64,000 bases of DNA from Parcubacteria group bacterium GW2011_GWC1_36_108 (GCA_000991245.1 LBRD01000003.1:6734-70733); one strand, 5' to 3'. Numbered from the stretch's first letter, positions 3,209-63,346 are shown. Notes: generated by a model not told the origin, from the letters alone. Numbers and translations: made by a program.

Positions 3209-3246
3209 AAGTTTTAAAGTTTTTAAAGTTATAAAGTTTTTAAAGT
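3209..3246. repeat. YATAAAGTT nonamer array (family R), copy 1
   Basis: aaagttttaaagtttttaaagttataaagtttttaaagt lies immediately upstream of the 2570..3208 gene start. Confidence 0.5.
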
Positions 3247-3434
3247 AAATTTCACACCTTTACCTTATGAACATTACAAACTTTACGAACAAATTAAAGA
3301 TTTAGCTCACCACAACTTCGGCTATGTTATAATTCATCCTCGTTTGTCTTGAAGGTAATACCAATAAAATTAGAAAATAGTTCAAAAAACTGCCACCCTA
3401 TTGGGCGGCAGTTTTTTTGTTTTTGCTATATTTT

Positions 3435-3863
3435 TTATTGTTGTGCTTTTTGAGCTTGCTTCAAGGCTTTTGCTGCGAGTCTGGCAGCTTTTTTGGCTTC
3501 TTTGGCTGCGATTCTTTCTGCTTTGATTTTTTGTCTTTCAGCAATTTTAGCTTCTTTTGCTAGTCTTTTTGCTTCTTGTTTTTTCAAACGCTCAGCTTTT
3601 TTGATTTGCTGTGCTAATCTTTTTTCTTCCTGCTTTTTCAAAAGAGCGGCTTTTTTTGCAATTTGCGCTAGTCTTTTTGCTTCTTGTTTGGCTTTGATTG
3701 CTGCCAATCTTTCTGCTTGGCGTGCTTTGTTTGCTGCGAGTCGTTGTTGTTTTTTTGCTTGCGTGGTTGTTTCGGTTGTTGTTGTCGTTTCGTTTGCGCT
3801 AACAAACGTCACTGGGAAAGCAAATGCAACCATAAGGGCAATTGCCACGAGTTTTTTCTTCAT
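3435..3863 (-). CDS. Secreted A/K/E/Q-rich repeat protein (coiled-coil, KAERLAAK-type repeats)
   Basis: Start chosen at MKKKLVAIALMVAFAFPVTFVSA (signal peptide) at 3863. The rest is a degenerate 11-mer repeat (KRLAQ/IKKAERL...). The antisense ORFs 3493..3984 and 3684..3878 are artefacts. Confidence 0.6.
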   Translation of the reverse strand: MKKKLVAIALMVAFAFPVTFVSANETTTTTETTTQAKKQQRLAANKARQAERLAAIKAKQEAKRLAQIAKKAALLKKQEEKRLAQQIKKAERLKKQEAKRLAKEAKIAERQKIKAERIAAKEAKKAARLAAKALKQAQKAQQ

Positions 3864-4058
3864 TGTTTTTATTTTTAATAAATTACATCTGTTATTATAC
3901 AGCTTTGAAGCGAGAGCCACAAGGGAGTTGTGCACACCCGTCCGCATCGTCACGCGAGCAAGCTCGTTTGCCAGGGTCACATAAAATTTTTTAAATATTG
4001 TCTATAAATCAAATTTGCGCTATACTGGATAGGTAAATATTGAATAAATCAAACAATT

Positions 4059-5000
4059 ATGGAAGGTCAAAAACCGTTTATCTCAGTTGTCGTGCCTTTG
4101 TATAATGAAGAAGGAAATGTGAGGGAATTACACAAGCGTATTTTAGATGCGTGTGAAAAACTGGGAAAACCATTTGAAATTATCTTTATTGATGACGGTT
4201 CTAAGGATGAGACAATCAAAAATGCCCAAGGCTTGACTCCTCTTACTTTAATCAAATTTCGCAAAAATTTTGGACAAACCGCAGCTTTTGATGCTGGTAT
4301 TAAGCAAGCGCAGGGTGAGATTGTGATCACAATGGATGGAGATTTGCAAAATGATCCTGCTGACATCGGGCTGCTGTTATCCAAAATGGAAGAAGGATTC
4401 GATGTTGTTTCGGGTTGGCGTTTCAAGCGAAAAGATTCGTTGAGCAAAAAAATATTTTCACGTACTGCCAATTTGCTGCGAAAAATTCTGATTCAGGACA
4501 CGATTCACGATAGCGGTTGTTCTCTGAAAGCGTATAAACGAAATTGTTTCGAAGACGTTGATCTTTTTGGAGAGATGCATCGTTTTATGCCGGCATTGCT
4601 GGAACTTCAAGGGTATAAAATTGGTGAAGTGAAAGTGAATCATTATCCTCGCGTGCATGGCGTGACCAAATATAATTGGAAACGTGGGATGAAGGGTTTT
4701 GTGGATATGATTTCGATTTGGTTTTGGCGCAAATATTCCAACAGGCCGCTGCATCTTTTTGGTGGAACCGGCATCGTTGTTTCATTTTTGGGGACATTGG
4801 TTCTTGTTTGGATGGTGGTTGAGAAAATTTTCTTTGGCGCATCACTTTCAGAAAAAATATGGCCTTTGGTGGGAATCTTTTTGGTTCTCGTTGGCATTCA
4901 ACTTTTCGTGTTCGGACTTTTGGCCGATATTATGCTTAAGAATTATTACAAAGGACAAAAGAGGATGAATTACAATATCAAAGAAATTAGTCAAAGCTAA
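4059..5000 (+). CDS. GT2 polyprenyl-phosphate glycosyltransferase (DPM1/GtrB/ArnC-like) with C-terminal TM helices
   Basis: ISVVVPLYNEEGNV, IFIDDGSKDET, TMDGDLQNDP (DxD), and two C-terminal TM segments typical of Dol-P/Und-P sugar synthases. Confidence 0.85.
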   Translation: MEGQKPFISVVVPLYNEEGNVRELHKRILDACEKLGKPFEIIFIDDGSKDETIKNAQGLTPLTLIKFRKNFGQTAAFDAGIKQAQGEIVITMDGDLQNDPADIGLLLSKMEEGFDVVSGWRFKRKDSLSKKIFSRTANLLRKILIQDTIHDSGCSLKAYKRNCFEDVDLFGEMHRFMPALLELQGYKIGEVKVNHYPRVHGVTKYNWKRGMKGFVDMISIWFWRKYSNRPLHLFGGTGIVVSFLGTLVLVWMVVEKIFFGASLSEKIWPLVGIFLVLVGIQLFVFGLLADIMLKNYYKGQKRMNYNIKEISQS

Positions 5001-5008
5001 TTTCTTAT

Positions 5009-5092
5009 TGTCATTCCCGTGAAAACGGGAATCCAGGACTGAGCCTAACTTGCGCGCAAACCTGGATCCCGGATCTGCTGTCCGGGACGACA
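5009..5092. mobile_element. MITE-like palindromic element, TGTCATTCC family, copy 1
   Basis: tgtcattcccgtgaaaacgggaatccaggactgag...gtccgggacgaca. The 5' hairpin cccgtgaaaacggg is shared with copies at 40849, 50655 and 53810. Confidence 0.7.
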
Positions 5093-5106
5093 CGAGTACA
5101 TGTCGA

Positions 5107-5175
5107 TTTCTTAACGCTCATCACTCGTTTTTTGCCTACGTACTTCATATGGTGCAAAGGGATGCGGGATACAAG
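5107..5175. repeat. Repeat element C (tttcttaacgctcatcactcg...catatggtgcaaagggatgcgggatacaag)
   Basis: Head repeated at 6672-6728. Tail (ggtgcaaagg[g/a]atgcggga) repeated at 9441-9470. Confidence 0.6.
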
Positions 5176-5203
5176 ATATATAATTAGTATAATATTTTAA
5201 ATT

Positions 5204-7657: not shown

Positions 7658-7785
7658 AGTTCATAAAGTTTTTAAAGTTCTTAAGGTTTATAAAGTAAAA
7701 TGCAAAAAGTTGTAAGGTTTTTAAGGTTTGTAAAGTTTATAATGTAAAATACAAAAAACTCCAAAGTTTATAAAGTTCATAAGGT
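7658..7785. repeat. YATAAAGTT nonamer array, copy 2 (longest; divergent intergenic region)
   Basis: gttcataaagtttttaaagttcttaaggtttataaagt...gtttataaagttcataaggt. About 12 degenerate units in the same orientation. Confidence 0.6.
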
Positions 7786-7793
7786 AAAACAAA

Positions 7794-8144
7794 ATGGCGA
7801 AATTTGAGACATTTGAAGATATTGTTGCTTGGCAAAAATCAAGAATTCTTGTAACTGATATTTATCAAGTATTCAGAAGCAGCAAGGACTATTCTTTTCG
7901 AGATCAAATACAGAGAGCTGCAGTTTCAATTATGAATAATATCGCCGAAGGTTATGAAAGAAAAGGAAATAAGGAATTTGCAAAGTTTTTATATATAGCA
8001 AAAGGTTCTTGCGCAGAGGTTCGTTCAATGCTTTATCTCGCTCTAGATTTAAGATATATTAATAGGGAAGAATTTAATAACTTTTCTGAACAATCACTTG
8101 TAATTTCTAAGATGTTATCAAGTCTCATAAAAACATTGTGTTAG
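7794..8144 (+). CDS. Four-helix-bundle protein (23S rRNA IVS protein family), second copy
   Basis: IAEGYERKGNKEFAKFLYIAKGSCAEVRSMLYLALDLRYI. 116 aa. Paralog of 500..865. Confidence 0.85.
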   Translation: MAKFETFEDIVAWQKSRILVTDIYQVFRSSKDYSFRDQIQRAAVSIMNNIAEGYERKGNKEFAKFLYIAKGSCAEVRSMLYLALDLRYINREEFNNFSEQSLVISKMLSSLIKTLC

Positions 8145-8172
8145 GGACTTTAAAAACTTTAAGAACTATACT

Positions 8173-15550: not shown

Positions 15551-17344
15551 ATGAATAATCCAATAGATAAAGAGTCTTTGAAGTCTTTGGTTGGGAGCAG
15601 ATTTTTTGTTGGAGCAATCTTGATTGCGATTTTGGCAGTTGGTGTTTTTTTGCGCGCATATAACTTTTCTGACTGGCAACATTTTGAACTTGATCAATCT
15701 CGCGATGCAAAGGTTATAGATTTGGCGGTGGAAAACGGAGTGGGGGATCTTCCTCTTTTGGGACCAAAGGCAGCGGGGTCATTTTTGCGTCTCGGTCCAA
15801 TATTTTATTATTTCGGTTATGTGAGCGCAAAAGTATTTGGTAACACGCCTTCTGGGATTGCTGTCATTTCACTCATTTTTTCTTGTTTAACGCTGCCCCT
15901 GTTTTATTTGTTTGTCAGAAGATTTTTTTCAAAAAAAATAGGACTTATGCTTCTAGGAGTTTTTTCCGTTTCAATTTTTCTTGTTCTGTACTCACGTTTT
16001 TCATGGAATCCTAATAATTTGCCATTTTTCATTTTGGGTGCACTTTATGGTCTCCTTCGTGCAACGGATGAGAATGAAAAAAGAAAAGGCTGGTGGTTGA
16101 TTGTAGGAGTTGTTTCTTTGACTATTGCAACTCAACTTCACTTTGTGGCTTTTTTGGGCTTGCCGATGATTGCCGTCGCGTATCTTCTAATAAAAAGACC
16201 TTTAATAAACTGGAAATATTGGCTGGCTTCTATCGCATGCATTGTTTTTTTGTATATTCCTTCGATAATAAATGATTTCAAGACAGGTGGTTCAAATATT
16301 ATTGAATTTGAAAAAGTGTTCGCAAAAACATCCACCAAGGGCGAGCATACTCTTGTTGAAAAAATAATAAGAAACATCGACAAGAGTTCGGCTGGATATG
16401 TCTTGCTGATAAGTGGAAATTCACAGGCCGAATTGCCAAAGGTGAAGATTCCAAGAATACGACCAATTTTTACATGTGATGAGGATTGCAAAAAAGGTGT
16501 CCCAATGGGAATTTTTTCACTATTCTTTGCTATTATTGGAAGTGCACTTTTGGGTTGGAATATTTTCAAAACAAAAGAAACTTCGCGCAGAGATTTTTTG
16601 ATCATCGTGGCTATTTGGGTATTGGTTACGCTGGCACTTTTTACTCCGATTTCATATGATATGGCTCCAAGATTCTTTCTGCTGGTTGCTCCGATCCCAT
16701 TTGTTTATTTGGGGCTTATTTTGGATTTTTTTGAAAAAAGAAAAGCCAGTGTTCTTTCTTGGGTTTTCGTTTTGATTCTCTTGGCTTCAAATGGCTGGCT
16801 TGTTAAAGAAAGATTTAGCGAACTTGCAAATGCTCCCGTTAAAGAATTTGAGATATCTTCGGACAAAATTCTCAAAGAAAACGAACGAGTAACCCTTGAG
16901 CAACAGCTTCTGATTACCAAATATATTGAAAGTATTTATAATCAAAACAACTTTCCAGTTTATGTTAATAGTGAGGCATTTTATCGCAGATCATTTTTGT
17001 ATCATCTGGAACAACGTTTGATAGTTCGCGATGATTTTCGCAATACCAGAAGTGTTTATTCTGAGGGAAATTATTTTTTGGTGTATCCATCTTCTTCAAC
17101 TGTGGAAAAAATTTATGAAAATTATCAGGATAAATATGATATTGCTGAAATCAAGGAATTTGGCACGCTTAGAGTTGTGCGCTTGCTTCCAAAATTGCAA
17201 ATGATAACAGCGGTGCGTCAGGAATTTGCTCCAGCAAGAAAACCAATCAGCGCTCCTGGCGTGCCAGTGCGTTGTCGTTGGAATGAAATTTTTTCCCAAT
17301 GTAATAGTGACGGAACGGAGGCGGAGGATGAAAGTAGTTTATAA
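15551..17344 (+). CDS. ArnT/PMT-like GT-C glycosyltransferase (family 39/83-like)
   Basis: FLRAYNFSDWQHFELDQSRD...LLGPKAAGSFLRLGPIFYY parallels the N-terminus of 10433..13147. 597 aa, polytopic. Confidence 0.7.
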   Translation: MNNPIDKESLKSLVGSRFFVGAILIAILAVGVFLRAYNFSDWQHFELDQSRDAKVIDLAVENGVGDLPLLGPKAAGSFLRLGPIFYYFGYVSAKVFGNTPSGIAVISLIFSCLTLPLFYLFVRRFFSKKIGLMLLGVFSVSIFLVLYSRFSWNPNNLPFFILGALYGLLRATDENEKRKGWWLIVGVVSLTIATQLHFVAFLGLPMIAVAYLLIKRPLINWKYWLASIACIVFLYIPSIINDFKTGGSNIIEFEKVFAKTSTKGEHTLVEKIIRNIDKSSAGYVLLISGNSQAELPKVKIPRIRPIFTCDEDCKKGVPMGIFSLFFAIIGSALLGWNIFKTKETSRRDFLIIVAIWVLVTLALFTPISYDMAPRFFLLVAPIPFVYLGLILDFFEKRKASVLSWVFVLILLASNGWLVKERFSELANAPVKEFEISSDKILKENERVTLEQQLLITKYIESIYNQNNFPVYVNSEAFYRRSFLYHLEQRLIVRDDFRNTRSVYSEGNYFLVYPSSSTVEKIYENYQDKYDIAEIKEFGTLRVVRLLPKLQMITAVRQEFAPARKPISAPGVPVRCRWNEIFSQCNSDGTEAEDESSL

Positions 17345-17392
17345 AGTTTGTAAAGTTATAAAGTTCATAAAGTTTATAAAGTTCATAAAGTT
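17338..17392. repeat. YATAAAGTT nonamer array, copy 3
   Basis: gtttataaagtttgtaaagttataaagttcataaagtttataaagttcataaagtt runs up to 8 nt before the ATG at 17400. Confidence 0.6.
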
Positions 17393-17399: not shown

Positions 17400-18926
17400 A
17401 TGAAAAAGACATTTCTTATCTTGTTTGCCATCATAATTCTGGGTGCTTTTTTGCGCTTTTATAAATTGGGAGAACTTTCTTTTGTGGCGGATGAATTTTT
17501 GGATATGAATTCTTCCTATGCTTATGCTCAAACTGGAACTTGGCAATCCTGGGATTTTAATCGTGGAGTTGTTAATGTGGAAAATGAATTTGCACCGCGC
17601 GATGAAAGAGCATGGCCATATAAGATTCAAGTTGCCAAACTGTTTGGTTTTTTTGCTCCGACTGAAGAGGTGGCAAGGAGTATTAGTGCGGTGTGGGGAA
17701 TCTTGAGTATTATCCTAATTTTTTTCGTGGCAAAATATTTTACTAGGAAAAATTCAATCGGACTTCTCAGTGCATTTTTGTTTGCAATAAGTGTCAGCGG
17801 AATCATTTTTGACAGACGTCTTCGAATGTATGCAATGTTCTTCCCATTTTTTCTGCTTTTCTCTTGGTTGACGTATAAATTTTTTGAGGAATCTTATGGA
17901 GGCAAGCTCAGGGTTTTTAAATATGTAAATGAAAAAATAGGTGTAAATTTGAAATATATCCTGCCAATGCTTCTGTCAGGATCGATGAGTCTGAAGATTC
18001 ATGATTTGACGGTCAGTATGGTTGCTATCTTTACTACATATGTCTTTATTATGACAACCAAGACTTTCTTGGAAAAAAAGACATTCATTTGGAATAAATA
18101 TTCTGTGACATTAAGCGTTGTCTTGGTCGCTGCTGCAGGAATTTTTACTTTTGCATCTGAAAAGATTGGAATGTATGCAGCTGGTATAAAATTTTTCAAC
18201 GACAATTTTAGTTATTTTTCAATAGTTACTTCGGACTATAGCCATCCATTGTTGGCACTTTTGTTTTTTGTTGCCGGTATTTATTATCTGGCGGTGCATA
18301 AAAAACTTTCCAAGGAGGGAATATGGCTGGCAGTTTCTTTTTTGGTTCCGCTTTTAATGGCAGTATTTTTGTGGAGGAGAAATGCGGGCGCCCAATATAT
18401 TTTCTTTGCTCAGTCTTTTGCTATTATCTTGATTGCATCTGGTGTTTACGGTGCAGCAAAATTTTTCAAAAATAATCTCGAGACTTTTTCTGCAAAAAAA
18501 GTATATTTCGTGACCATTGCCTTATCTCTGATGCTTTTGCCAAACTACGCATATTTTTTTCAGGAGAACAACGCTTACAGCCAGACTTCAGCAGCTGAAA
18601 ATCCGAATTATCGAAGCATCTTCACATATTTCAAGAAGAAAAAAATCGATGGCGATGTTCTGATAACAAGAAATTTTCGAAACTATTATTGGAGTGGACA
18701 AAATGTGAAAGTGATTGACTTTGGTGGGGAATTGGCTGAAGAAAAATTTTCATTAGCCCAACTTACAAATGTCGTGAATGAAAATAAGACAGGTTGGGTA
18801 ATTCTTTCCGACAATGATGACCGCTACATTTCAAATGAGGCTTCTGTTTATATGCAAGAAAATATGACCAAGATAAATGATATTGCAGTGCGAGGAAACG
18901 TGCTGGTTTACAGATGGGGGATGTAA
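17400..18926 (+). CDS. ArnT/PMT-like GT-C glycosyltransferase (family 39-like), fourth paralog
   Basis: Start set to MKKTFLILFAIIILGAFLRFYKLGELSFVADEFLD. ORF 17226 begins inside the nonamer array. Polytopic, 508 aa. Confidence 0.65.
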   Translation: MKKTFLILFAIIILGAFLRFYKLGELSFVADEFLDMNSSYAYAQTGTWQSWDFNRGVVNVENEFAPRDERAWPYKIQVAKLFGFFAPTEEVARSISAVWGILSIILIFFVAKYFTRKNSIGLLSAFLFAISVSGIIFDRRLRMYAMFFPFFLLFSWLTYKFFEESYGGKLRVFKYVNEKIGVNLKYILPMLLSGSMSLKIHDLTVSMVAIFTTYVFIMTTKTFLEKKTFIWNKYSVTLSVVLVAAAGIFTFASEKIGMYAAGIKFFNDNFSYFSIVTSDYSHPLLALLFFVAGIYYLAVHKKLSKEGIWLAVSFLVPLLMAVFLWRRNAGAQYIFFAQSFAIILIASGVYGAAKFFKNNLETFSAKKVYFVTIALSLMLLPNYAYFFQENNAYSQTSAAENPNYRSIFTYFKKKKIDGDVLITRNFRNYYWSGQNVKVIDFGGELAEEKFSLAQLTNVVNENKTGWVILSDNDDRYISNEASVYMQENMTKINDIAVRGNVLVYRWGM

Positions 18927-20583: not shown

Positions 20584-20717
20584 CGAAGATGAAAAATTTT
20601 AAATGTCAAAATTAAAATTTCAAATAAATGACTAAATATTTAATTTATTAAAAAATATTTTTATCATTAAGGAATTTGAAATTTATTTGATATTTGTAAT
20701 TTTTAATTTGAAATTAT

Positions 20718-21305
20718 TTATGCTATCTGGGATTTTATAATGCTAAATATTTCTTCTTTATCTTTATTGCCGTCTACTATTTTTAAATTCCAGACAGTTG
20801 CTGCTTGGTCGAGAAGCGCTTTTTTCTTGTTTAAATATTCCAATCCTTGATCTGGCACGCGGTCACGTTGCATTATTTTTTCTGGAGAGGTGTTGAGATA
20901 AAAAGCAAAATCGGGAGTAGGAATTAGGTGGTAGGAATTAGGTGGTAGGGGGGAATTTTGAAGGTATAAAATATTAATAATGTTGTCGTAGAAATAGCGG
21001 TCGGAAAGAATGTAGTCGTAGCCGGAGTTACGTAGCTTGTTACGTAGCAAAACAAAACGCAGCAGGTCAATGTGCAGCGCAACTTTGCGCAGTTGGATTT
21101 GCAGCCAACCAGCCTTTGTTACACTTTTTGTTTCCTGTTGACCGTTGATTGTTGATTGTTGATTGTTAAGAACATTGGCGATTGAAAACTGGACAGCGTG
21201 AAAATAAAAAACTTTCTTGCCTTGTGATTCAAGATAATTTTTCAATAAATTTATTTGGGTCGATTTGCCGCTGCCGTCTAAACCTGAGATTGAAATTATT
21301 TTCAC
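20718..21305 (-). CDS. tmk: Thymidylate kinase-like (d)NMP kinase with low-complexity insertions
   Basis: P-loop SGLDGSGKSTQ, DRY motif LSDRYFYD. In-frame tandem duplications are visible in DNA (ggaattaggtggtag x2; gttgatt x4 encoding NNQQSTINGQQ). Confidence 0.6.
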   Translation of the reverse strand: MKIISISGLDGSGKSTQINLLKNYLESQGKKVFYFHAVQFSIANVLNNQQSTINGQQETKSVTKAGWLQIQLRKVALHIDLLRFVLLRNKLRNSGYDYILSDRYFYDNIINILYLQNSPLPPNSYHLIPTPDFAFYLNTSPEKIMQRDRVPDQGLEYLNKKKALLDQAATVWNLKIVDGNKDKEEIFSIIKSQIA

Positions 21306-21306
21306 A

Positions 21307-21390
21307 AAAGTTTATAAGGTTCATAAAGTTCTTAAGGTTCATAAAGTGTTTTTGTATTTACTTTATAAACTTTATAACTTTATAACTTTT
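21307..21390. repeat. YATAAAGTT nonamer array, copy 4, palindromic arrangement
   Basis: The left arm has ...ttcataaagt units. The right arm has actttataa units (reverse complement). Predicts a long imperfect hairpin between rtcB stop and tmk start. Confidence 0.6.
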
Positions 21391-21396: not shown

Positions 21397-22896
21397 TTAG
21401 TACATTATTACTGCCACTGGTTGCATTTTGGCGACAATATGTGCGACGCCGTTGGCTTCAACTCCTTTGATCACTTCATCAATATTTTTATATTTGGCGC
21501 TGTCTTGGTTGATGACGATTGAGGACTGGGCATTGTAAAGTCTAACACCTTTTTCTTCCATTTTGGCAAAAAGTTCTTCCTTGTTGGAAATGCTTTTTTC
21601 GTTGTTGTTTTTTCCTTTGCCGGTTCCGTGTGGTGCAGAATAAAAACTTTGATCGTTTCTGTCAGTGCCGACACAGATGTATGCATCAGTGCTCATTGAA
21701 GAGGGGATAAATGCTGGTTCTCCTGTTTCTTTATAAATCGGATGGTGCGACATTTTTGCAGGACCAAAGGCGCGCGAAGTGTTGGAACGATGAATCATCA
21801 CATCTTTTCCGAAATGCTCCTCCTTGGTGATGGAAATGTGCGGCAGGTCATAAATTAAATCCATTTCAGGGTCGCGGCCGAGAATTTTTTTGATAGCCTG
21901 CGAAATGTTGTGCGTGATGACAGCTCGGTTGGCTGTTCCAAAATTGCTTGCAGCTGCTCGGGCGTTCATATACATTTCGCCATCTTCTCCGTTGGCATCA
22001 TATTTCAAAAGCGAATCATCTTTGGTCATATGCAGCTTTATTTTTTTCTGCATCTTTTTGTAAACATCTTTTTTGCGAGAACTGAATGTGAGGCGACCAA
22101 GCGCAACCATAAGAGCTTGCGAAAGATGTTCAGCTTTTTTGGCTGTGTGAGTATACATTGTGTATTGGCCAAGAATGCCACTTCCGGTGTGAATCATAAA
22201 AAGATATTGGCCCTTTTTAATTCCAAATTTTTCTGCCATCTCAGCATCAACAATGTCTCCAACTTTCATTAAGTCAAGAAAGTGATTGCCAGCAGCGCCA
22301 AGAACTCCCAATCGATATTTCGCAAAGTTTAAATATAGTTTCGGGATGACATCAAAAATATCTTGTCGGGTCATTTCTTTTTCAAAAAAACTTCCTCCAC
22401 TCTGGGTGTTTTCCAATTCATTTTTGGTGGTAATTCCAAGATGTTTGATGATGGCCTTTGTGCCTTGACGGCAGATGTCCACCACGACATTGAAGGGAAC
22501 TTTTGTGCCGACAAATTTCTTGGTGGGAACAACCGAAACTAATTCTTGAAATAGCTTATGAATTTCTTCCGGCGAAATGTTTTCATCGCTAAGATTTGTT
22601 TTGACAAGTCGCATTCCGCAATTAGGATCAGAGTCATTAACTTGCGGGAGAATATATTTTTCACTGGCGATTGTTGTGCCAGCAGCATTTTTTCTTCCTG
22701 GCTTGGAACAAACATCTGGCATAGCGACGGTGCTTCTAAAAAAAGTGTCTTTATTTGAAGCGATGTCTTCCACTTGAGAGAATGTTTCTTCTTCTGGCAA
22801 AAGATTTTGATTCATAAAAAAAAGTGCCGGCACAGACATTTTGTCGGTTTTAAATTCTTTTATGTTCTCAGAAAGTGATTTCGTTTCGTATTTCAT
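21397..22896 (-). CDS. rtcB: RtcB-family RNA 3'-phosphate ligase
   Basis: VAMPDVCSKPGRKNAAGT (PDxH-like metal site), GAAGNHFLDL (NHF), MIHTGSGILGQ, SAPHGTGK are RtcB motifs. 499 aa. Confidence 0.75.
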   Translation of the reverse strand: MKYETKSLSENIKEFKTDKMSVPALFFMNQNLLPEEETFSQVEDIASNKDTFFRSTVAMPDVCSKPGRKNAAGTTIASEKYILPQVNDSDPNCGMRLVKTNLSDENISPEEIHKLFQELVSVVPTKKFVGTKVPFNVVVDICRQGTKAIIKHLGITTKNELENTQSGGSFFEKEMTRQDIFDVIPKLYLNFAKYRLGVLGAAGNHFLDLMKVGDIVDAEMAEKFGIKKGQYLFMIHTGSGILGQYTMYTHTAKKAEHLSQALMVALGRLTFSSRKKDVYKKMQKKIKLHMTKDDSLLKYDANGEDGEMYMNARAAASNFGTANRAVITHNISQAIKKILGRDPEMDLIYDLPHISITKEEHFGKDVMIHRSNTSRAFGPAKMSHHPIYKETGEPAFIPSSMSTDAYICVGTDRNDQSFYSAPHGTGKGKNNNEKSISNKEELFAKMEEKGVRLYNAQSSIVINQDSAKYKNIDEVIKGVEANGVAHIVAKMQPVAVIMY

Positions 22897-24249: not shown

Positions 24250-24259
24250 AAATAGTGTT

Positions 24260-43110: not shown

Positions 43111-43156
43111 GAAAAATTCGCCAAAAAAAATTAAACACAAATAAGGAATGGGTATT

Positions 43157-43364: not shown

Positions 43365-43527
43365 GAAATAAATTTTTTATCTATACTAATATTAGCGTTT
43401 AGTGATGCTAGTAAGGACAGAAAATTTGATTTTTTAATTATTTTAAGAGGGGTAATATGTGTTTTTCTGCTCTTTGGGGAGCAGAAAAAATTAATTCATT
43501 TGTAATTTATTTTTAAGCAATAAAACT

Positions 43528-44430: not shown

Positions 44431-44572
44431 ATATCCAAAAAAATACCAATAAGGAGTCTTGAAAAAAGGAATTCACCCCTTACCCCTCTTCCTTTTTTCA
44501 AGACAAAAATCAAATTTTCTTAGACGCAACACAACGTTTAGTTTAATAAAAAACGAGATAAAAAATTTACAT

Positions 44573-44701
44573 CGCACAACAACTCATATCTGGCTCAAGA
44601 AATTGACACTTTAATGTTTCAGATGAAAGTCAATTTCTTTCGACCCAAATTTTTGTGCAATTACATTGCGCAAAAACTTCAGATATGAGTAACGTTAGCT
44701 G
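44573..44701 (+). other. attC-like element 2 (inverse core CGCACAAC ... core acG^TTAGCTG)
   Basis: The stem is ctcatatctgg / ccagatatgag. Against element 1 the pairs C:G>T:A co-vary. Same internal hairpin gaaattgac/gtcaatttc. 3' core is complementary to element 3's inverse core CAGCTAAC. Confidence 0.6.
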
Positions 44702-44853
44702 AAATATTTTTTTGTCTTTAGTAGTGATTTTTAGATTTGTGATTTAAATAGGGACAGAAAATTTGATTTTTAATTTATTTAAAGAGGGGTAATGGGATAT
44801 TTTTTTGCTCCTGGAATCGCAAAAAAAAGATTTATTTTATTTTTAAAAACAGT

Positions 44854-46431
44854 ATGGAAAAATATTCATTAGAAAATGCCCAGAGCGAAGCTACTGTTAT
44901 TAGAAATGATGCACAAGAGGCAAAACAAAAAAGAGTGCTAGAGGGCGAAAAAAGCGGTGAGCCAAATAGAGATGATTATGACAAAGCCGACAAAGCGATT
45001 GATAGCATTGGCATAAGTAATAGAAAAGAATTTGAGCAAAAACAAGCTGAGATACAAAATAAATATTCAACCGTATTGGAGGGGTCAAAAAATAGCGGTA
45101 ATCAAGAATCTGTAAAATTGCTTCAAGATAACATGAGTCAAGAACTATCTTTTATTGATAGCCAATCAAAGAAATTTAATAGTTTGGAATTTAAAAAGGG
45201 AGAGAAGGCGACGCGTGAATATATTAAAAAAAATAATCTTGATAAATTAGTAGAAGAATTCGGAATTGAGCCAATGAAAGAGGGTTGTCGTCTTTCATTG
45301 GTCATTCCAGCATGCAACGAGGGGCGTGATATTCAAAAAACATTACAATCCTTAGCAGAGCAGAAAGATGAAAATGGTGAAGGTATTAATCCTGATGAAT
45401 TTGAGGTTTTGATTACAGTCAATCAAAAAGAGCAATCAAGCGAGGAAATAAAAAAATCAAATCAACAAACACTTGAAGCAATAGAAGAATTCAAAAGGAA
45501 TAATCCATCTTTAAATATCCATGCTATTTTAAAAGAATTTACGGGCGAGCAAGGTGGTGTTGGTTGGGCAAGAAAATTAGGAAGTGATTTGGTACTTGCA
45601 AGAAGTTTTAGCAGAAATCAAGAATCTGAACGAGAACCGATGTATATTGCAGGAACTGACGCTGATACAATTGTTGGTGAGCAATATGTATCAGAAATTA
45701 TCAAGGCAGCAAATAAGTATGGCGATGCCGCCTATGGCGGTGGTGTTATTTTTGATGAGAATTGGGAAAAAGCATTGGGAAAAAATGCGTCCGACAAGCT
45801 CAGGGTATTCATGGAAGATATGCGTGGATTTCTATTAAAGGCATTAAATGGCGGTTTGCAAGGTGCAAACTTTGCCATACGCGAAGATATCTATGCTCGC
45901 ATGGAAGGAAGCTCAACAAAAGTACATAGCGAAGATGCGGAAAATGATGAACGATTACGAAGTTTGAAAAAAAATGTAACATTTTTAAATTCTGACCATA
46001 TCACTAGCTCTCGTAGGATGATTGGAGAATTCGAAAACTATATTGCTGGAATGCGAGGGCAAAAAATAGACTGGGAAACACGAAACAAGACTTATGGAAA
46101 GTCTGTCCCTACGGGAGAAAAAATTGACTTTACTGAATCCGAGCTTGATGAGGTAATTGCTTACCACAAATTACATAGATCAGATCTAATTATAGACAGT
46201 ATAACTTCGGAAAACGTAAATAATCCAGAGATGGTGCAATTGATTGGAGAAAAATATCATTCTGATTTTAAAGATTTAAAAACTGAAGAATTTAAGACAC
46301 TATTGAATGATAAAAATTTTAGAAAAAAATTACAAATTGAGATAGCATACAATATGTCTAAATTATTTGCATCGAAAATTTCATATACAGAAAAAGATAA
46401 ATTCATCATCGGAATTCCAGAAAAACAATAA
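44854..46431 (+). CDS. Cassette 3 cargo: GT-A-fold (GT2-like) glycosyltransferase-like protein with long acidic N-terminal extension
   Basis: LSLVIPACNEGRDIQKTLQSLAEQ (GT2 N-terminal signature) and YIAGTDADTIVGEQY (DxD). 525 aa, no TM or signal peptide. Confidence 0.5.
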   Translation: MEKYSLENAQSEATVIRNDAQEAKQKRVLEGEKSGEPNRDDYDKADKAIDSIGISNRKEFEQKQAEIQNKYSTVLEGSKNSGNQESVKLLQDNMSQELSFIDSQSKKFNSLEFKKGEKATREYIKKNNLDKLVEEFGIEPMKEGCRLSLVIPACNEGRDIQKTLQSLAEQKDENGEGINPDEFEVLITVNQKEQSSEEIKKSNQQTLEAIEEFKRNNPSLNIHAILKEFTGEQGGVGWARKLGSDLVLARSFSRNQESEREPMYIAGTDADTIVGEQYVSEIIKAANKYGDAAYGGGVIFDENWEKALGKNASDKLRVFMEDMRGFLLKALNGGLQGANFAIREDIYARMEGSSTKVHSEDAENDERLRSLKKNVTFLNSDHITSSRRMIGEFENYIAGMRGQKIDWETRNKTYGKSVPTGEKIDFTESELDEVIAYHKLHRSDLIIDSITSENVNNPEMVQLIGEKYHSDFKDLKTEEFKTLLNDKNFRKKLQIEIAYNMSKLFASKISYTEKDKFIIGIPEKQ

Positions 46432-46551
46432 GGAGTTTTGTTTCAAAAAAATTCACCCCTACCCCTCTTTTTTTGAAACAAAACGAAAAATCAAATTTTC
46501 TTAGTAATAAAACAAAGTTTGTATTAATAAAATAGAAGACAAAAAAATACA

Positions 46552-46744
46552 TCAGCTAACACGGCATATCTGGTTCAGAAATTTTTCACTTTTATACTTT
46601 TTAACGCCAAGGTTTGAAAAATTTCCTCTCCCAAATTGCGCTGTGATATGGCAAAGTTTAGTGATATAATTAAGGCAGGCAGAAAGTTGAAGTTTTAGCC
46701 AATGAATATGGGCGCAACTTCAGATGATGCCGATACGTTGTCGG
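46552..46744 (+). other. attC-like element 3 (inverse core CAGCTAAC ... core acG^TTGTCGG)
   Basis: The stem is cggcatatctgg / cagatGatgccg, with one extra unpaired G in the 3' arm (an extrahelical base). Conserved cccaaatt and aacttcagat. Confidence 0.55.
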
Positions 46745-46806
46745 AAATATCAAAAAACAAATTCATTAATATTTTTTTCAAGCCCTTTTGAAATTCAGGT
46801 AAAGAA

Positions 46807-46835
46807 AAAACCGCACAGTATTCTGTGCGGTCGTA
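46807..46835 (-). terminator. Rho-independent terminator for the minus-strand small ORF
   Basis: aaaaaaccgcacagtattctgtgcggtcg. On the minus strand this reads as an 8-bp-stem hairpin followed by a T-run. Confidence 0.6.
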
Positions 46836-46848
46836 ATTACATTTGTCA

Positions 46849-47019
46849 TTATATCGCCCTCGACATTTCCTGAATTGAAGCCTCGCTTAGTTTGTTGTGT
46901 TCTTTTTCGTCACAAGAAGCTATCAAGTACGTGCACAAGATTATAGTACCACCAAATCCATTGGGAAAATGTTGGGCATGTCTACAGTCATCATCTTCGT
47001 ATGGACAACGCTTTTCCAT
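46849..47019 (-). CDS. Small (56 aa) Cys/His-rich protein, possible zinc ribbon; inverted relative to the array
   Basis: MEKRCPYEDDDCRHAQHFPNGFGGTIILCTYLIASCDEKEH... Preceded by a strong SD GGAGGTGA at 47024-47031. Not in the ORF track (<60 aa). Confidence 0.45.
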   Translation of the reverse strand: MEKRCPYEDDDCRHAQHFPNGFGGTIILCTYLIASCDEKEHNKLSEASIQEMSRAI

Positions 47020-47105
47020 ATTAATCACCTCCTTGTTTAATGTGCTAGTATACTATTATTAGATAAATTATCAATATTGTCAAGCGGGGAAAAACTTCTC
47101 ATACT

Positions 47106-47120
47106 TAGATATGTTGTGCG
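47106..47120 (+). other. Degenerate attC 3' end / terminal core site tagatatG^TTGTGCG
   Basis: Resembles the 3' end of element 1 (cagatatgggcgacGTTGTGCGaaat) with a 7-nt deletion. Followed by the same gcgaaat(t)tttt context. No matching 5' arm found. Confidence 0.35.
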
Positions 47121-47212
47121 AAATTTTTTAAAAATGCTGTGGATAAGTTACGGTGTACGGTTTTTAATTATAATGATACAATATCACTATAATTAAATAA
47201 AGAATAAAACTT

Positions 47213-48040
47213 ATGCAAAATCCAGAAAGTCACATTGCCATTTTCAAGGGAAAAACTATCAGAAAAATCATTTTTCAAAAGGAATGGTGGTTTTCTGTTG
47301 TGGATATTATACAGGTCATAACGGACAGTCCAACTCCAAGGCAATATTGGGGCAAGGTTAAGCAGCGTGAATTTACTGATCTTCAGTTGTCCCCAATTTG
47401 GGTACAACTGAAATTGGAAGCTTCTGATGGCAAAAAATATGAAACAGATTGTGCAAATACAGAAGGAATGCTTCGTATTATTCAATCAATACCATCTCCT
47501 AGGGTTGAACCATTGAAACGTTGGCTAGCAAAGGTTGGTTATGAGCGCATTCAAGAGGTAGAAAACCCAGAACTTGCCAGCAAACGGACAAGATTATTAT
47601 ATAAACTAAAAGGTTATCCTGAAGATTGGATTGAAATGCGTATGCGTGGTATTGCAATTCGCGAAGAATTGACAGATGAATGGCAAAAAAGAGGTGCAAA
47701 ATATAAACAAGATTACGAAATTTTAACTGCAGAAATATCTGAGGCCACATTTGGACTAAAACCAAATGAATATAAAAAAGTAAAAAGTCTGAAGCGTGAA
47801 AATCTTCGTGACCACATGGATGACTTCGAATTAATTTTGACTATGCTGGGCGAGCGAACCACAAAAGAAATTCATAAAACCAAAGATTCCAAAGGTATAC
47901 AAAGATTGAAAGATGATGCTAGACTTGGCGGAGAAGTAGCAGGAACAGCTAGAAAACAAATTGAAAGAAGAATTGGCAGACCAGTGATTTCAGAAAAGAA
48001 TTTTCTGAAATCTAACAATAGGAAGAAAATTAAAAAATAG
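47213..48040 (+). CDS. Bro-N domain protein (phage antirepressor-like)
   Basis: N-terminal IRKIIFQKEWWFSVVDIIQVITDSPTPRQYWGKVKQRE matches the BRO-N family. The C-terminal half is K/E-rich. Confidence 0.65.
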   Translation: MQNPESHIAIFKGKTIRKIIFQKEWWFSVVDIIQVITDSPTPRQYWGKVKQREFTDLQLSPIWVQLKLEASDGKKYETDCANTEGMLRIIQSIPSPRVEPLKRWLAKVGYERIQEVENPELASKRTRLLYKLKGYPEDWIEMRMRGIAIREELTDEWQKRGAKYKQDYEILTAEISEATFGLKPNEYKKVKSLKRENLRDHMDDFELILTMLGERTTKEIHKTKDSKGIQRLKDDARLGGEVAGTARKQIERRIGRPVISEKNFLKSNNRKKIKK

Positions 48041-48077
48041 AATATTTTCAAAAATAATAATAAGCAATCTTAATCTT

Positions 48078-48539
48078 ATGAAATATAAACACACTCAAAT
48101 TGGTTATCTGATGTTAGTTGTTACGTTGGCTGTGGCGGTGCTTTTCGCACGGATTTATATTATGGCTGCTGCCGAGCCACCTTCGGCTGATTCGGGCACA
48201 AATCTTCTTGTTACTGCTGTAATGTTATTAATCCTGTCTGTTCTTGCTTCCTTCGGGTCACTTCAAGTAATTATTGATGAAGAAAATTTAAGAATAAAAT
48301 TTGGCTACGGTATTTTTAGAAAAAAGTTTTCGCTTGATGATATAATTTCTGCTAAAACAGTGAAGAATCATTGGTATTATGGATGGGGAATAAAGATGTG
48401 GCTCTGGCCAAAAATGTGGATTTACAACGTTTCCGGTTTTGATGCGGTTGAAATAAAAATGAAGAATGGTAAAATGTATAGAATAGGCACGGATGAACCT
48501 GGAAAATTAGAACAAGCAATTTTGCAATCAATTAAATAA
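48078..48539 (+). CDS. Hypothetical membrane protein (2 TM helices)
   Basis: 153-aa ORF, hydrophobic N-terminal segments. Confidence 0.4.
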   Translation: MKYKHTQIGYLMLVVTLAVAVLFARIYIMAAAEPPSADSGTNLLVTAVMLLILSVLASFGSLQVIIDEENLRIKFGYGIFRKKFSLDDIISAKTVKNHWYYGWGIKMWLWPKMWIYNVSGFDAVEIKMKNGKMYRIGTDEPGKLEQAILQSIK

Positions 48540-48574
48540 TTAAGACTAGGTAAAAAAATAAAAAAACAAAAACT

Positions 48575-48781
48575 ATGTTTAAACATCACAAAAAGAAAAA
48601 CCCATTCTTGTATCATTTAATATCAGGAATTGGGCTTATTATTTTTTGGCGAGGAATTTGGGGGATTATGGATCTGTATCTCTTTCCCGGAAATCCAACG
48701 CTGAGTCATTCTTTTGCAATTACACTTGGGCTTGTTATTTTATATTTCAATGATTTTTCAATATCAGAGTTGATCAAATAA
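48575..48781 (+). CDS. Hypothetical small membrane protein
   Basis: 68 aa, two hydrophobic helices. Confidence 0.3.
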   Translation: MFKHHKKKNPFLYHLISGIGLIIFWRGIWGIMDLYLFPGNPTLSHSFAITLGLVILYFNDFSISELIK

Positions 48782-49064: not shown

Positions 49065-49101
49065 ATGTTTTTGCGGGGATTATCTTAATAATTTTTTATT
49101 G

Positions 49102-49234
49102 TTAGGACTTACGCACTTTCTCAACGATTTCTTTTTTGGCACGCTTTTGGATAAATACTCACTATCCAAAAACTCAAAGAGTCGCTGTCGCCAACAATTG
49201 GCCAAAAAAGAAATGTTTCGAAATGCGTAACTTC
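49102..49234. mobile_element. 130-bp palindromic repeat element (MITE-B), copy 2
   Basis: ~90% identical to 37443-37573. A partial inverted copy lies at 2468-2545. Confidence 0.65.
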
Positions 49235-49326: not shown

Positions 49327-49866
49327 ATGCAAAAGAAAAAAATATTTGTTGAAATAGAGGTTCCCGGACAGTTAAAAAGACGGTTGGCTCAGATTATAGC
49401 CAAGTGGTCTGATTTGCCGATCAAATGGATGAAAGAGGAAAATTTGCACATCACTGTGTCTTTTGTGGGATATGTTGATGAAAGCGTGCTGCCTGAAATT
49501 TGTCAAAAAGTCAGAGTGGCTGTGGAAAACTTTGAAGCTTTTGATTTGGAATTTGACCGCATCGAACTTGGACCAAATCCTGCTGATCCCAAAACAGTTT
49601 GGCTCACGGGACAGCCTTGCAGTGAGCTTGGCGTGCTTAATGAACAAGTCGAGCGAGCTCTTGGAATGAGACCGGAAACACACAAGGAATTTCGACCGCA
49701 CATCACGCTGGGGCGCATTCGCAAGCTGAAATGGGATGAACTTGTCGAAAAGCCTGAAATTTCTGAGAAAATTAATGTTTCAATGACGGTGGACAGTCTT
49801 TCGATTATGGAAAGTAAAGGCGGGGGAGCGGAATATGTTTCGTTGGAAGAATGTTCGCTGGCGTAA
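49327..49866 (+). CDS. thpR: RNA 2',3'-cyclic phosphodiesterase (2H phosphoesterase, LigT/ThpR family)
   Basis: Two H-x-T/S-x motifs: HITVSF and HITLGR. 179 aa. Confidence 0.8.
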   Translation: MQKKKIFVEIEVPGQLKRRLAQIIAKWSDLPIKWMKEENLHITVSFVGYVDESVLPEICQKVRVAVENFEAFDLEFDRIELGPNPADPKTVWLTGQPCSELGVLNEQVERALGMRPETHKEFRPHITLGRIRKLKWDELVEKPEISEKINVSMTVDSLSIMESKGGGAEYVSLEECSLA

Positions 49867-49869: not shown

Positions 49870-49906
49870 AGTTCGTAAGGTTATAAGGTTTGTAAAGTTC
49901 ATAAAG
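49870..49906. repeat. YATAAAGTT nonamer array, copy 6
   Basis: gttcgtaaggttataaggtttgtaaagttcataaagt ends 2 nt before the tagA ATG. Confidence 0.55.
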
Positions 49907-49908
49907 TA

Positions 49909-50654: not shown

Positions 50655-50736
50655 TGTCATTCCCGTGAAAACGGGAATCCAGAACCGAGTCTAGCTGAAG
50701 AGCTAAACTAGATTCCGGATCAAGTCCGGAATGACA
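50655..50736. mobile_element. MITE-like element, TGTCATTCC family, copy 5
   Basis: tgtcattcccgtgaaaacgggaatccagaaccgag...ggattccggatcaagtccggaatgaca. The 3' end is the reverse complement of copy 2's 5' end. Confidence 0.7.
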
Positions 50737-56926: not shown

Positions 56927-56992
56927 AATAGGTTTTAGGTATTAGGTTTTAGTTTTTAGGTTGCTCACTCTAAATGCTAATTTCTAATTAAG

Positions 56993-57776: not shown

Positions 57777-57861
57777 TTGCTCAAAAACTCTTATTTGTTA
57801 TAATAAATTAAGTTATCATATCACCTAAAACCTAGCACCTAATCACCTAAAACCTATTCTT

Positions 57862-61475: not shown

Positions 61476-61493
61476 AAGCAACAACATTAAAAA

Positions 61494-61536
61494 GAGCTCT
61501 GCGCGAGAATCATCGTGCAGAGCTCTTTAATTTTTC
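61494..61536 (+). terminator. Rho-independent terminator
   Basis: gagctctgcgcgagaatcatcgtgcagagctctttaattttt. Confidence 0.6.
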
Positions 61537-61617
61537 AAAAAAAGAAAAAAGGCAACAGAGAAATCTCTATTTGCCTTTTCGTTCGCCTTAGCATAGTTTT
61601 TTGATGAAATCTAGGGT

Positions 61618-61740
61618 GAGATCGCTCAAACCTTAAATTGCGGGTTCAATTGATGCAGGCCGTTCGAATCATGCTTACTATACTGGCTTCCACGTTCGTG
61701 GAAAATACGTTTAATCTCACCCCTATTTTTTATTTTTCCC
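61618..61740. ncRNA. Possible structured non-coding element (long-range stem tagggtgagat / atctcaccccta enclosing internal hairpins)
   Basis: Outer arms at 61612-61627 and 61715-61730. Internal ttccacgttcgtggaa hairpin. Only a low-complexity 98-aa ORF overlaps. Speculative. Confidence 0.2.
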
Positions 61741-61855
61741 CAATACTTGGGCTGGCAGTCCAGTTTCCATCATTCAGGGTGAGTAAGACAGAGTTCGCCA
61801 ACTCGATCGTCTTAAAACGATATTATAACATTACTAGAAAATATGCAAATTTAAT

Positions 61856-62440
61856 TTATTCCCACTTGCCTACCTTAAAAAATGAAAGTCTGAGGGTTTT
61901 ATCGATGCTATCCTCATTGAAAGTTATAATGTAATCAACTTCCACGTTGTTAGGAAAATTTTTCAATGCAAGATTTTCATTTATTGATTTATCCGTATGA
62001 ATCCAGCAATATTGGTAATTCTTTACAACAAGAAGCGCGGCATCTGTTTCTTGTAGTGTTTTAGGATTATCAAAAGCACTAGGCTGAATACCTCCAAATT
62101 TACTTACGCGAATATTTTTCCACTTGGATTTATTTTGCATATCACAAATAGAACTTGCTATGTTAAATGTCAACCCCTGTTTCTTTTTATGATCAACGAT
62201 AGAATTTACACTGTTGCCCCAAAGAAGATCAAAAAAATCCCCGAATTTATTAAGCAGCTCCGGATAATTTCTGCTTAAAAAATAGAAAAATTTAGCTTCC
62301 TCCATGATTTCATACACAAAACATTCCATCCTTTTCATTAACCTTATTCGCATTTTACCTTCCAAGATTATGCCTATTAGTTTTAAAAGAGCCTTTGCCA
62401 ATTTTTCCGAACATCCGTCCATGCGGTTCGTTGTTTCCAT
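61856..62440 (-). CDS. Hypothetical protein
   Basis: 194-aa ORF with SD ccaaggaggca. No motifs recognised. Confidence 0.4.
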   Translation of the reverse strand: METTNRMDGCSEKLAKALLKLIGIILEGKMRIRLMKRMECFVYEIMEEAKFFYFLSRNYPELLNKFGDFFDLLWGNSVNSIVDHKKKQGLTFNIASSICDMQNKSKWKNIRVSKFGGIQPSAFDNPKTLQETDAALLVVKNYQYCWIHTDKSINENLALKNFPNNVEVDYIITFNEDSIDKTLRLSFFKVGKWE

Positions 62441-62558
62441 TTTGTGCCTCCTTGGGCAATGGGATTTTTACTTCTGAATACAAACTAGCATAGATACACA
62501 AAAAAACAACCCTCTTGAGTTGTTTTTCTAGAAAGCTAAGAAGCTAATGCCTAATAAG

Positions 62559-63251
62559 CTATTTTATCATTGTTCCCACAAATTTCTCCCCATCCAAATA
62601 TCTCTGAAAGTTGTTCATTTTTTTGCCGTTTAAAATTGCAACCTCAATCCCCTCTTTGGCTGCCATTTTGGAAGCGATTGGATCAAATGGAACATTGGAG
62701 CCTGGATCCCAAGTTTCGCCGACTATTTTTTGAAAATCATTCCAATTTATTTCTTTGATTCTTTTGGCATCTTTGTGTTTCTTTGGATCTTTGTCACAAA
62801 CGTAATCAATATTGGAAAGGTTGGCAATTTTTTTAACATCAAAATGCTTAGCCAGCAGCACTGCAATATAATCCGTGGAATTTCCAGGTTTATATCCAGC
62901 CGCAACCAAAACTGATTCTTTGGCTTTTAAAAAACTTTCCAAATCATATGGATTTTTGTTAATCGTCGGATGTGCATATTTCTTGAAAATAGTTCGGATG
63001 AAATGTGCATTCATTCTGGTGGCATGAATCCCAATCCAATCCTTGTCTTCATCATCAATATCGCCCACTTTTGCGCCAGCTTCAATATATTTTCTTGCAG
63101 TCTTCCCCCCGCCAGTAATGATAATAAAACGAAAACCTTTGACAATTCCATCCTCAATAACTTTTTTAAATTGCTTAACAAATTTCCAATCAATTTCTTC
63201 CGGTACAATTAATGAACCACCAAGTGAAATAACGATTGTTTTTTTGTTCAT
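62559..63251 (-). CDS. pyrH: UMP kinase, archaeal/eukaryotic-like short form (amino-acid kinase family)
   Basis: TIVISLGGSLIVPEE ... FIIITGGGKTARKYIEAG ... IHATRMNAHF. The GGGKxARKYIE motif matches archaeal-type PyrH rather than the E. coli GGGNLFRG type. Confidence 0.75.
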   Translation of the reverse strand: MNKKTIVISLGGSLIVPEEIDWKFVKQFKKVIEDGIVKGFRFIIITGGGKTARKYIEAGAKVGDIDDEDKDWIGIHATRMNAHFIRTIFKKYAHPTINKNPYDLESFLKAKESVLVAAGYKPGNSTDYIAVLLAKHFDVKKIANLSNIDYVCDKDPKKHKDAKRIKEINWNDFQKIVGETWDPGSNVPFDPIASKMAAKEGIEVAILNGKKMNNFQRYLDGEKFVGTMIK

Positions 63252-63346
63252 AAGGTATAGTTGTAAAGTTCATAAAGTTTGTAAGGTTCATAAAGTATTT
63301 TTGTAATTCCACTTTATAAACTTTTGACTTTATAACTTTATAAACT
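63249..63346. repeat. YATAAAGTT nonamer array, copy 7, palindromic
   Basis: aaagttcataaagtttgtaaggttcataaagt ... actttataaacttttgactttataactttataaactt. Confidence 0.6.

Follow-up and report, generated by a model that had tools for sequence, protein, structure and literature searches.

Tandem nonamer arrays in a Parcubacteria genome as candidate repeat arms of intervening-sequence-type elements linked to one PF05635 clade

Introduction

Why should the same short tandem repeat stand directly in front of one unrelated gene after another in a Parcubacteria genome? A 64,000-nt stretch of Parcubacteria group bacterium GW2011_GWC1_36_108 (GCA_000991245.1, LBRD01000003.1:6734-70733; hereafter the window), which belongs to a Parcubacteria/Moranbacteria genome from groundwater of the Rifle aquifer and is mostly an envelope-polysaccharide gene cluster, carries arrays of the nonamer YATAAAGTT in its intergenic gaps. 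An earlier note on this DNA listed seven arrays and proposed a lineage-specific binding site for a DNA-binding protein or a promoter/terminator combination. Comparison with close relatives and with other phyla leads us to lean, on balance, towards another answer: the arrays are the repeat arms of a family of selfish elements of the intervening-sequence (IVS) type, tied to one clade of PF05635 proteins.

IVSs classically interrupt 23S rRNA at helices 9, 25 or 45. PF05635 (S23p) proteins number in the thousands across bacteria, and to our knowledge the function of the family has been unknown for about 30 years. In described IVSs, an S23p open reading frame (ORF) is accompanied by terminal inverted repeats, which pair as a 28-bp stem, and RNase III excises the IVS (PMC4990558). 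ORFs of the 23S_rRNA_IVP type are known in 16S and 23S insertions of the candidate phyla radiation (CPR; bioRxiv 10.1101/2024.02.27.582315), and PF05635 ORFs are known between cas genes (PMC3936711). Avd, which resembles S23 proteins, is a barrel-shaped pentamer and binds one particular RNA element (bioRxiv 10.1101/2023.10.23.563531).

A PF05635 gene lies between inverted nonamer arrays

The unit read at the seven sites is TAARGTT followed by Y and D (A/G/T). All seven arrays lie where the earlier note placed them, and its 9-bp period is the usual one, with 8 bp in some units; Tandem Repeats Finder described each array by a period of 9, or by the variants 8, 17 and 18, with 3-6 copies per block. 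The two-unit pattern TAARGTTNNTAARGT matched the window 35 times with at most one mismatch, compared to 0.69 matches expected from dinucleotide shuffles of the window, and 0 of 100 shuffles attained 35. As dispersed extragenic copies in one genome, the arrays amount to eight sites in the 64 kb plus two just beyond the window, and all eight sites are 100% intergenic in a window that is ~86% coding.

The array at 7658-7785 is one arm of a larger structure, whose second arm is an eighth site absent from the earlier note:

7658-7785, + strand: forward nonamer array in three blocks with a 49-bp super-period; 5' arm, ending 8 nt before the ATG at 7794
7794-8144, + strand: PF05635 gene (23S rRNA intervening-sequence protein, four-helix bundle), 116 amino acids, Pfam E = 4.6e-36
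8147-8170, - strand: reverse units of the ACTTTA type; 3' arm

The inverted-repeat score of 7658-7785 against 8147-8170 is 41, where the shuffle maximum is 28. The full element is (TAAAGTT-Y-D)n, the PF05635 ORF and (reverse units)n, and its window copy spans 7658-8170. Relatives of the encoded protein in the Protein Data Bank (PDB), 2gsc and 2rld, have five chains per entry.

The window holds a second PF05635 gene in a sister cassette whose arms are made of a different unit, and this unit also occurs in an ORF-less copy:

413-914, - strand: sister cassette with the PF05635 gene 500-865 (-), Pfam E = 2.1e-16, between inverted TCAAAT/ATTTGA-type arrays at 413-484 and 864-914
20584-20717, unstranded: ORF-less palindrome of sister-family units (tttcaaattaaaaattacaaatatcaaat ... 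atttgaaattttaattttgacatttaaaattt), downstream of tmk

The inverted repeats of the sister cassette show 76% complementarity over 34 nt and 89% over 18 nt. Its arm alignment score of 33 is below the shuffle maximum of 39 because the sequence is very AT-rich.

The array type expected around homologues of each protein was set beforehand, and the prediction held in 8/8 cases. Four homologues of the 7794-8144 protein (69-77% identity) were picked by long contigs alone; their gene neighbourhoods are unrelated, and in each of them TAAAGTT units extend as far as the ATG and ACTTTA units follow the stop. Likewise, 4/4 homologues of the 500-865 protein, one of them from a deltaproteobacterial metagenome-assembled genome, have TCAAAT-type units upstream and ATTTGA-type units downstream. 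Inverted tandem arrays bracket 9/12 PF05635-like genes when the window and the fetched loci are taken together, with a unit that varies from case to case, and the neighbours of homologous cassettes are unrelated housekeeping genes. PF05635 proteins flanked by TAAAGTT are mutually 52-64% identical, even between Patescibacteria and a Paludibacter, compared to just 17-34% identity with proteins flanked by other units. The type of repeat unit tracks the clade of the PF05635 protein.

ORF-less and single-armed copies fill gaps between genes

The remaining window copies fill short gaps between co-directional genes. Four are palindromes, which are cassette arms without the ORF, and two are single arms standing alone:

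3207-3290, unstranded: weak palindrome, forward units 3207-3246 and reverse units 3262-3290, directly upstream of the minus-strand gene 2570-3202
17338-17392, + strand: solo forward array of ~6 units, ending 8 nt before the ATG at 17400
21306-21390, unstranded: ORF-less palindrome, forward 21306-21347 and reverse 21360-21390, occupying the whole gap between RtcB (21397-22896, -) and tmk (20718-21305, -)
29258-29342, unstranded: ORF-less palindrome, forward 29258-29290 and reverse 29305-29342, between the UDP-glucose dehydrogenase gene (29350-30633, -) and a 76-amino-acid ORF (29017-29247, -)
49870-49907, + strand: solo forward array of ~4 units, starting 4 nt past the stop of the LigT-like gene (49327-49866) and ending 1 nt before the ATG of the TagA/WecG gene (49909)
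63249-63349, unstranded: ORF-less palindrome, forward 63261-63296 and reverse 63311-63349, between a 102-amino-acid ORF (63353-63661, -) and pyrH (62559-63251, -)

The reverse units at 3262-3285 were not in the earlier note and came from the two-unit pattern scan. At five sites the array end away from the start codon contacts or overlaps the stop codon of the upstream gene; for example, the TAA of the first unit of 17338-17392 (17342-17344) is the stop codon of the gene 15551-17344. The first unit of the palindrome at 63249-63349 overlaps the pyrH start codon, and this palindrome is identical in ten contigs from other samples. Of the gene labels given previously, four-helix bundle (PF05635), tmk, TagA/WecG and pyrH hold, whereas the 'GT-C' gene (17400-18926) and the 'secreted' protein gene (2570-3202) have no Pfam match.

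The palindromes of the window fold on either strand at -13 to -25 kcal/mol. The three described before as a direct array followed by its reverse complement (21306-21390, 29258-29342 and 63249-63349) have that layout and form hairpins, with folding z scores of -2.5 to -5.5 on either strand, and the weak palindrome at 3207-3290 reaches -12.6 kcal/mol on the + strand and -16.9 kcal/mol on the - strand. A scan of the window against Rfam 15 at gathering scores returned 0 matches, and a tRNA scan of the window found none.

Array polarity, placement and turnover

Paired arrays run forward-then-reverse in 27 cases and reverse-then-forward in 1, and the element therefore has an inside and an outside. 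The distances to start codons reported earlier are correct for the window. Across the 120 other loci listed, with each array turned to forward orientation, it is the stop codon of the upstream co-oriented ORF that the outer end hugs (median 11 nt before the array, 29/43 within 20 nt), and the start of the downstream co-oriented ORF lies a median of 152 nt past the array. The upstream stop codon is often the TAA of a unit or a degenerate version of it, and is in register in 34/52 cases compared to ~17 expected. Of the solo arrays, about half run antisense to the neighbouring gene. Since the genome is compact and its gaps are short, arrays touch both neighbours, which is why they looked to be 'immediately upstream of genes'.

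Three ideas about orientation and reading frame were considered and dropped. An association of forward-only arrays with plus-strand genes and of palindromes with minus-strand genes fails on a forward-only array in contig L001 that precedes an opposite-strand gene. A role as in-frame back-up stops, with TAA every 9 nt, meets a weak phase bias (24, 15 and 13 for the three phases) and is incompatible with the heptamer families. A likeness between the T7 'epsilon' translational enhancer and the reverse unit was set aside, since both orientations adjoin starts.

Close relatives differ by gain, loss and replacement of arrays. At the RtcB-tmk junction, the palindrome is retained, with a different unit number and sequence, in relatives whose RtcB is 98%, 94% and 90% identical. 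A relative at 93% RtcB identity has TAGGTnn heptamers in place of the palindrome, an unrelated palindrome is found at 86% identity, and merely 22 nt remain at 83%. Other orthologous junctions show the same replacement among array families and palindromes resembling miniature inverted-repeat transposable elements (MITEs). Both the unit number and the 8/9-bp unit length vary between close strains. When filled and empty RtcB-tmk junctions were compared, no target-site duplication or clean empty site was recognised.

The unit spans several phyla and occurs inside rRNA genes

A scan for three consecutive units, taking one genome per species and leaving two positions per unit free, returned at least 120 stretches. 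Among the matches listed, ~50 are from Bacteroidota, including cultured Butyricimonas (for example B. synergistica DSM 23225) and Plebeiibacterium, ~29 are from Patescibacteria and 14 from Ignavibacteria/Fibrobacteres-Chlorobi-Bacteroidetes (FCB), and the rest are from Firestonebacteria, Elusimicrobia and scattered others. The TAARGTT unit with matching variable positions is present in at least five phyla, contrary to the suggestion that the motif is specific to this lineage. The spacer bases fall within the window's own set in 89% of cases in the bacterial matches, compared to 94% in the window itself and 22% in viral contigs. The agreement in bacteria indicates that these matches form one family. 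The viral-contig scan gave many pattern matches, but many of these lay in coding sequence or were perfect repeats of an unrelated kind, and the scan turned up no PF05635 ORF; together with the poor spacer fit, this provides no evidence for a viral vector.

Some copies lie within structural RNA genes and are therefore transcribed with them. Magasanikbacteria contig L050 has two palindromic arrays inside its 16S gene (Rfam SSU, 1377 bits) and a third between tRNA-Val and tRNA-Ile, and a complete Campbellbacteria genome (L109) has one palindromic array in the 5' part of its 23S gene. The rRNA copies sit at helix tips, atop longer G+C-rich stems (-52 to -75 kcal/mol, z -9 to -12), and their sense strand folds equally well or better. 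These embedded copies resemble intervening sequences or helix extensions. The 16S gene of L050 (1864-3705) is ~309 nt longer than the Rfam model and, besides the two array hairpins, contains a 110-nt insertion near model position 80.

Other repeats and genes near the arrays

Several other repeat families share the gaps of this genome. Heptamer arrays of TAGGTTT (56929-56962, +) and its complement AAACCTA/CACCTAA (57821-57856) are inverted ~860 nt apart around an Rrf2 gene and a 68-amino-acid ORF, and each adjoins a start (56926, minus; 57862, plus). Their TAGGTnn unit is the one that replaces the nonamer palindrome at the RtcB-tmk junction of relative L134. Another TAGG-type heptamer array (TAGGAATTAGGTGG x2.5) lies at 20918-20952, inside the ORF called tmk, whose Pfam thymidylate kinase match spans just residues 6-51 of 195; this may be an array inserted in a coding region, or a degraded gene.

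MITE-like palindromes with the common modules GTCATCCTGAACTTGTTTCAGGATC, CATTCCCGTGAAAACGGGAATCC and TCCGGATCAAGTCCGGAATGACA are found at 24250-24356, 24711-24850, 40852-40929, 50658-50736 and 5012-5034. The 140-nt copy at 24711-24850 is missing in relative L132, which has 2 nt there between flanking genes that are ~92% identical. A conserved element of ~31-40 nt, GCCAAAAAAGAAATGTTTCGAAATGCGTAAC(TTCTGA), occurs in the 5' regions of unrelated genes at 2473-2503 (-), 37539-37569 (+) and 49201-49231 (+), with a looser copy near 49080-49130 (-), and has no Rfam match. In relatives (the J3 junction of L132, and L151 at 1010-1130), TAAAGTT units surround a G+C-rich hairpin (cccgtgaaatt...aatttcactggg or similar), which suggests nested or composite insertions of different element types.

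Two RNA-repair-type genes, RtcB and the LigT-like 2',5'-ligase/phosphoesterase (49327-49866, +), are each directly upstream of a nonamer array, an adjacency that may be coincidence. The region 41445-48600 may be an integrated element: next to a Xer/phage-integrase-family gene (41445-42263, -), AT skew is reversed (+0.14 to +0.18) and G+C is lower over a stretch that contains Bro-N and DUF4116 genes as well as nearly identical regions upstream of 43528 and of 44854. In an intergenic gap of L001 (7831-7905), ~1.3 kb past the right end of the window, 75 nt match E. coli 23S rRNA 2108-2182 (the L1-stalk region) and may be an L1-binding mimic.

Discussion

The nonamer arrays appear, somewhat in favour of this over any other account, to be arms of IVS-type selfish elements that travel with one PF05635 clade. 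IVSs with S23p ORFs, and PF05635 genes in CPR rRNA insertions and between cas genes, are already known. A literature search on IVS proteins and repeats found no description of tandem 7-9-bp arms, clade-specific units or dispersed ORF-less arrays, and a search on the literal repeat sequence had as its sole match an unrelated primer-like one.

How such an element might persist can be outlined by analogy. It would be co-transcribed with host genes, and its arms would pair, either as an AU-rich hairpin or as a long-range stem around the ORF. As in classical 23S IVSs, RNase III would cut the arm stem. Cleavage would rid rRNA of an insert, and in operons it would separate one cistron from the next and release the start codon adjoining the stem, making insertion harmless in both settings. 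The element's own PF05635 protein would recognise the tandem 9-nt units, probably one unit per subunit, which would account both for the conservation of the core across phyla and for clade-own units. We infer this recognition from a core kept over protein divergence to ~55% identity, from the five-chain PDB relatives and from the RNA binding of the Avd pentamer.

Several observations sit poorly with this scheme. Three of the 4 window palindromes fold better on the antisense (+) strand (-22.4 vs -18.9, -24.8 vs -14.6 and -24.9 vs -23.6 kcal/mol), and this lends no support to selection on the sense RNA. Between the arms, spacer positions are not complementary, so the stems are 6-8-bp segments with small internal loops between them, and such interrupted stems match an RNase III stem no better than they match arrays of protein-binding sites. 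No hairpin can form from a solo array, and calling it a 'half copy' is only a label. The tight, in-register contact of the outer end with stop codons is not predicted by an IVS model, and the correlation of unit with clade could come merely from joint inheritance of arms and ORF. Finally, among the window proteins scanned there is no reverse transcriptase (RT), transposase or RNase III gene, and neither a mechanism of mobility nor a catalytic protein was found.

The antisense folding, the unpaired spacers, the solo arrays, the possible co-inheritance and the missing mobility enzyme make a DNA-level element, like REPINs (paired repetitive extragenic palindromic, REP, sequences) with their REP-associated tyrosine transposases (RAYTs) or like MITEs, a serious rival, although we still consider it unlikely. 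Here the arrays would be terminal binding sites, PF05635 or a trans-acting enzyme would move or copy the element, and RNA hairpins would be incidental. The polarity of 27 to 1 is that of transposon ends; a conserved core with variable spacers that do not match between arms is the pattern of protein-binding sites; presence, absence and replacement at orthologous junctions are what mobility would leave; an ORF-bearing copy stands alongside many ORF-less ones, as with RAYTs and REPINs; and the spread across phyla suggests horizontal transfer. Against these stand the lack of any known catalytic or DNA-binding activity of PF05635, the lack of a transposase, RT or Y1 nuclease in the window proteins scanned, and an RtcB-tmk junction at which neither target-site duplication nor clean empty site was recognised. 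Moreover, the changes in unit number between strains look like slippage rather than transposition, and tolerance inside rRNA genes is left unaccounted for by a DNA-level element by itself.

The other explanations fare worse. One takes up the binding site proposed in the earlier note: the arrays would be operator-like, and some DNA-binding protein, perhaps PF05635 itself, would control transcription of the genes downstream as one regulon. Its appeal lies in the fact that every window array ends 0-60 nt from a start codon. The notion of a sequence-specific recognition site keeps some force, since the arrays are strictly intergenic, are not randomly distributed and share a conserved core, and one of them encloses a gene for a candidate cognate protein. 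Gene regulation finds no such support. The downstream genes (pyrH, tmk, TagA, GT4 and a membrane ORF) are functionally unrelated, and array positions are not conserved, the RtcB-tmk array being kept, swapped or lost among relatives with 83-98% identical RtcB and other junctions behaving alike, which makes a downstream-gene regulon unlikely. The arrays lie nearer to upstream stops than to downstream starts across the listed loci, occur inside rRNA genes and between tRNAs, and when solo are antisense to the neighbouring gene about half of the time. We regard operator function as quite improbable, and infer that pyrH, tmk, tagA and the other neighbours are not under gene-specific control by the arrays, any effect on these genes being a by-product. 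Promoter and/or intrinsic-terminator modules that separate transcription units are less probable again, despite palindromes between co-directional genes with an A-run (AAAAGTT) and a T-run (AACTTTT) at their edges and arrays that begin right past stop codons across genomes. A sigma-70 scan (-35/-10 hexamers, 16-18-bp spacing) listed no match of at least 9/12 inside any array, and array hairpins are absent from the window's 19 terminator-like sites, even under a lenient rule, because their stems have no G-C pairs; other parts of the window do contain canonical TTGACA-17-TATAAT promoters (e.g., 7572-7544) and GC-rich terminators. A stem is lacking in solo arrays, and efficient termination by the 16S and 23S copies would abort rRNA synthesis. 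Least probable of all, and hardly credible to us, are passive AT-rich microsatellites that arise by replication slippage and are recognised by no factor. Unit number and unit length do vary between close strains, and several other short tandem arrays occupy intergenic gaps of this genome, but slippage leaves unexplained a unit with the same allowed spacer bases in several phyla, the one-sided polarity, the link of the PF05635 clade to its unit in 8/8 homologues and the stop codons in unit register.

Set beside known systems, the IVS-type reading finds its nearest parallel in the 23S IVSs with an S23p ORF of Leptospira and Coxiella burnetii, which share a PF05635 ORF inside stem-forming terminal inverted repeats and a selfish, sporadic distribution; related array copies do occupy 16S and 23S genes. 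The window copies differ in lying between protein-coding genes, with no rRNA in the window, in having arms of tandem 7-9-bp units where IVSs have a unique 28-bp inverted repeat, in being mostly ORF-less or single-armed (six sites) and in having a clade-specific unit. REP/REPIN and RAYT systems likewise disperse short extragenic palindromes in gaps, often near stop codons, with one protein gene flanked by repeats and different clades keeping different cognate repeats in one genome. Unlike in those systems, the flanked gene here is a PF05635 four-helix bundle without a Y1 (IS200/IS605-like) transposase domain, the repeats are tandem arrays rather than single 20-40-nt palindromes, turnover between close strains is far faster, and copies occur inside rRNA genes. 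As regards MITEs, inverted arms are present; the comparison of filled and empty junctions showed no recognisable target-site duplication, and no parent insertion sequence was found.

On the RNA side, the RNase III hairpins of phage T7 (early R1-R5 sites) and of rRNA operon stems are also long imperfect stems filling gaps between co-transcribed genes, with the downstream start codon at the stem foot, where cleavage would uncouple the cistrons and expose the start. The analogy is functional only, and the stems here are very AU-rich and interrupted every 6-8 bp. Avd of diversity-generating retroelements belongs to the same fold family, being a PF05635-like pentamer with a positively charged barrel, and binds a defined RNA element, whereas the proteins here stand alone, with no RT among the window proteins and no template/variable repeat pair nearby. 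Ring proteins like TRAP resemble the proposed arrangement of one short repeat per subunit with 2-3-nt spacers tolerated, although they belong to an unrelated protein family and the resemblance is purely hypothetical.

A wider and more tentative proposal, which we hold as possible though doubtful, is that PF05635 proteins are sequence-specific binders of tandem repeats and form, with their clade-specific arrays, paired autonomous and non-autonomous elements similar to RAYTs and REPINs, built on a non-enzymatic pentameric protein. If this is true, such elements would have spread into intergenic gaps, operons and rRNA genes in many bacterial phyla, with rapid turnover in the genomes of the CPR.

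PF05635 genes occur within rRNA genes, in cas operons and in numerous other operons, and units peculiar to each clade make the function of the family testable by asking whether a protein binds its own unit and whether the stem is processed. The elements explain some of the unusual insertions found in rRNA genes of the CPR. Arrays of this kind call for caution and should not be read as gene-specific regulatory sites or as CRISPR-like repeats. Instead, they point to a fast-evolving layer of intergenic elements in the streamlined genomes of the CPR.

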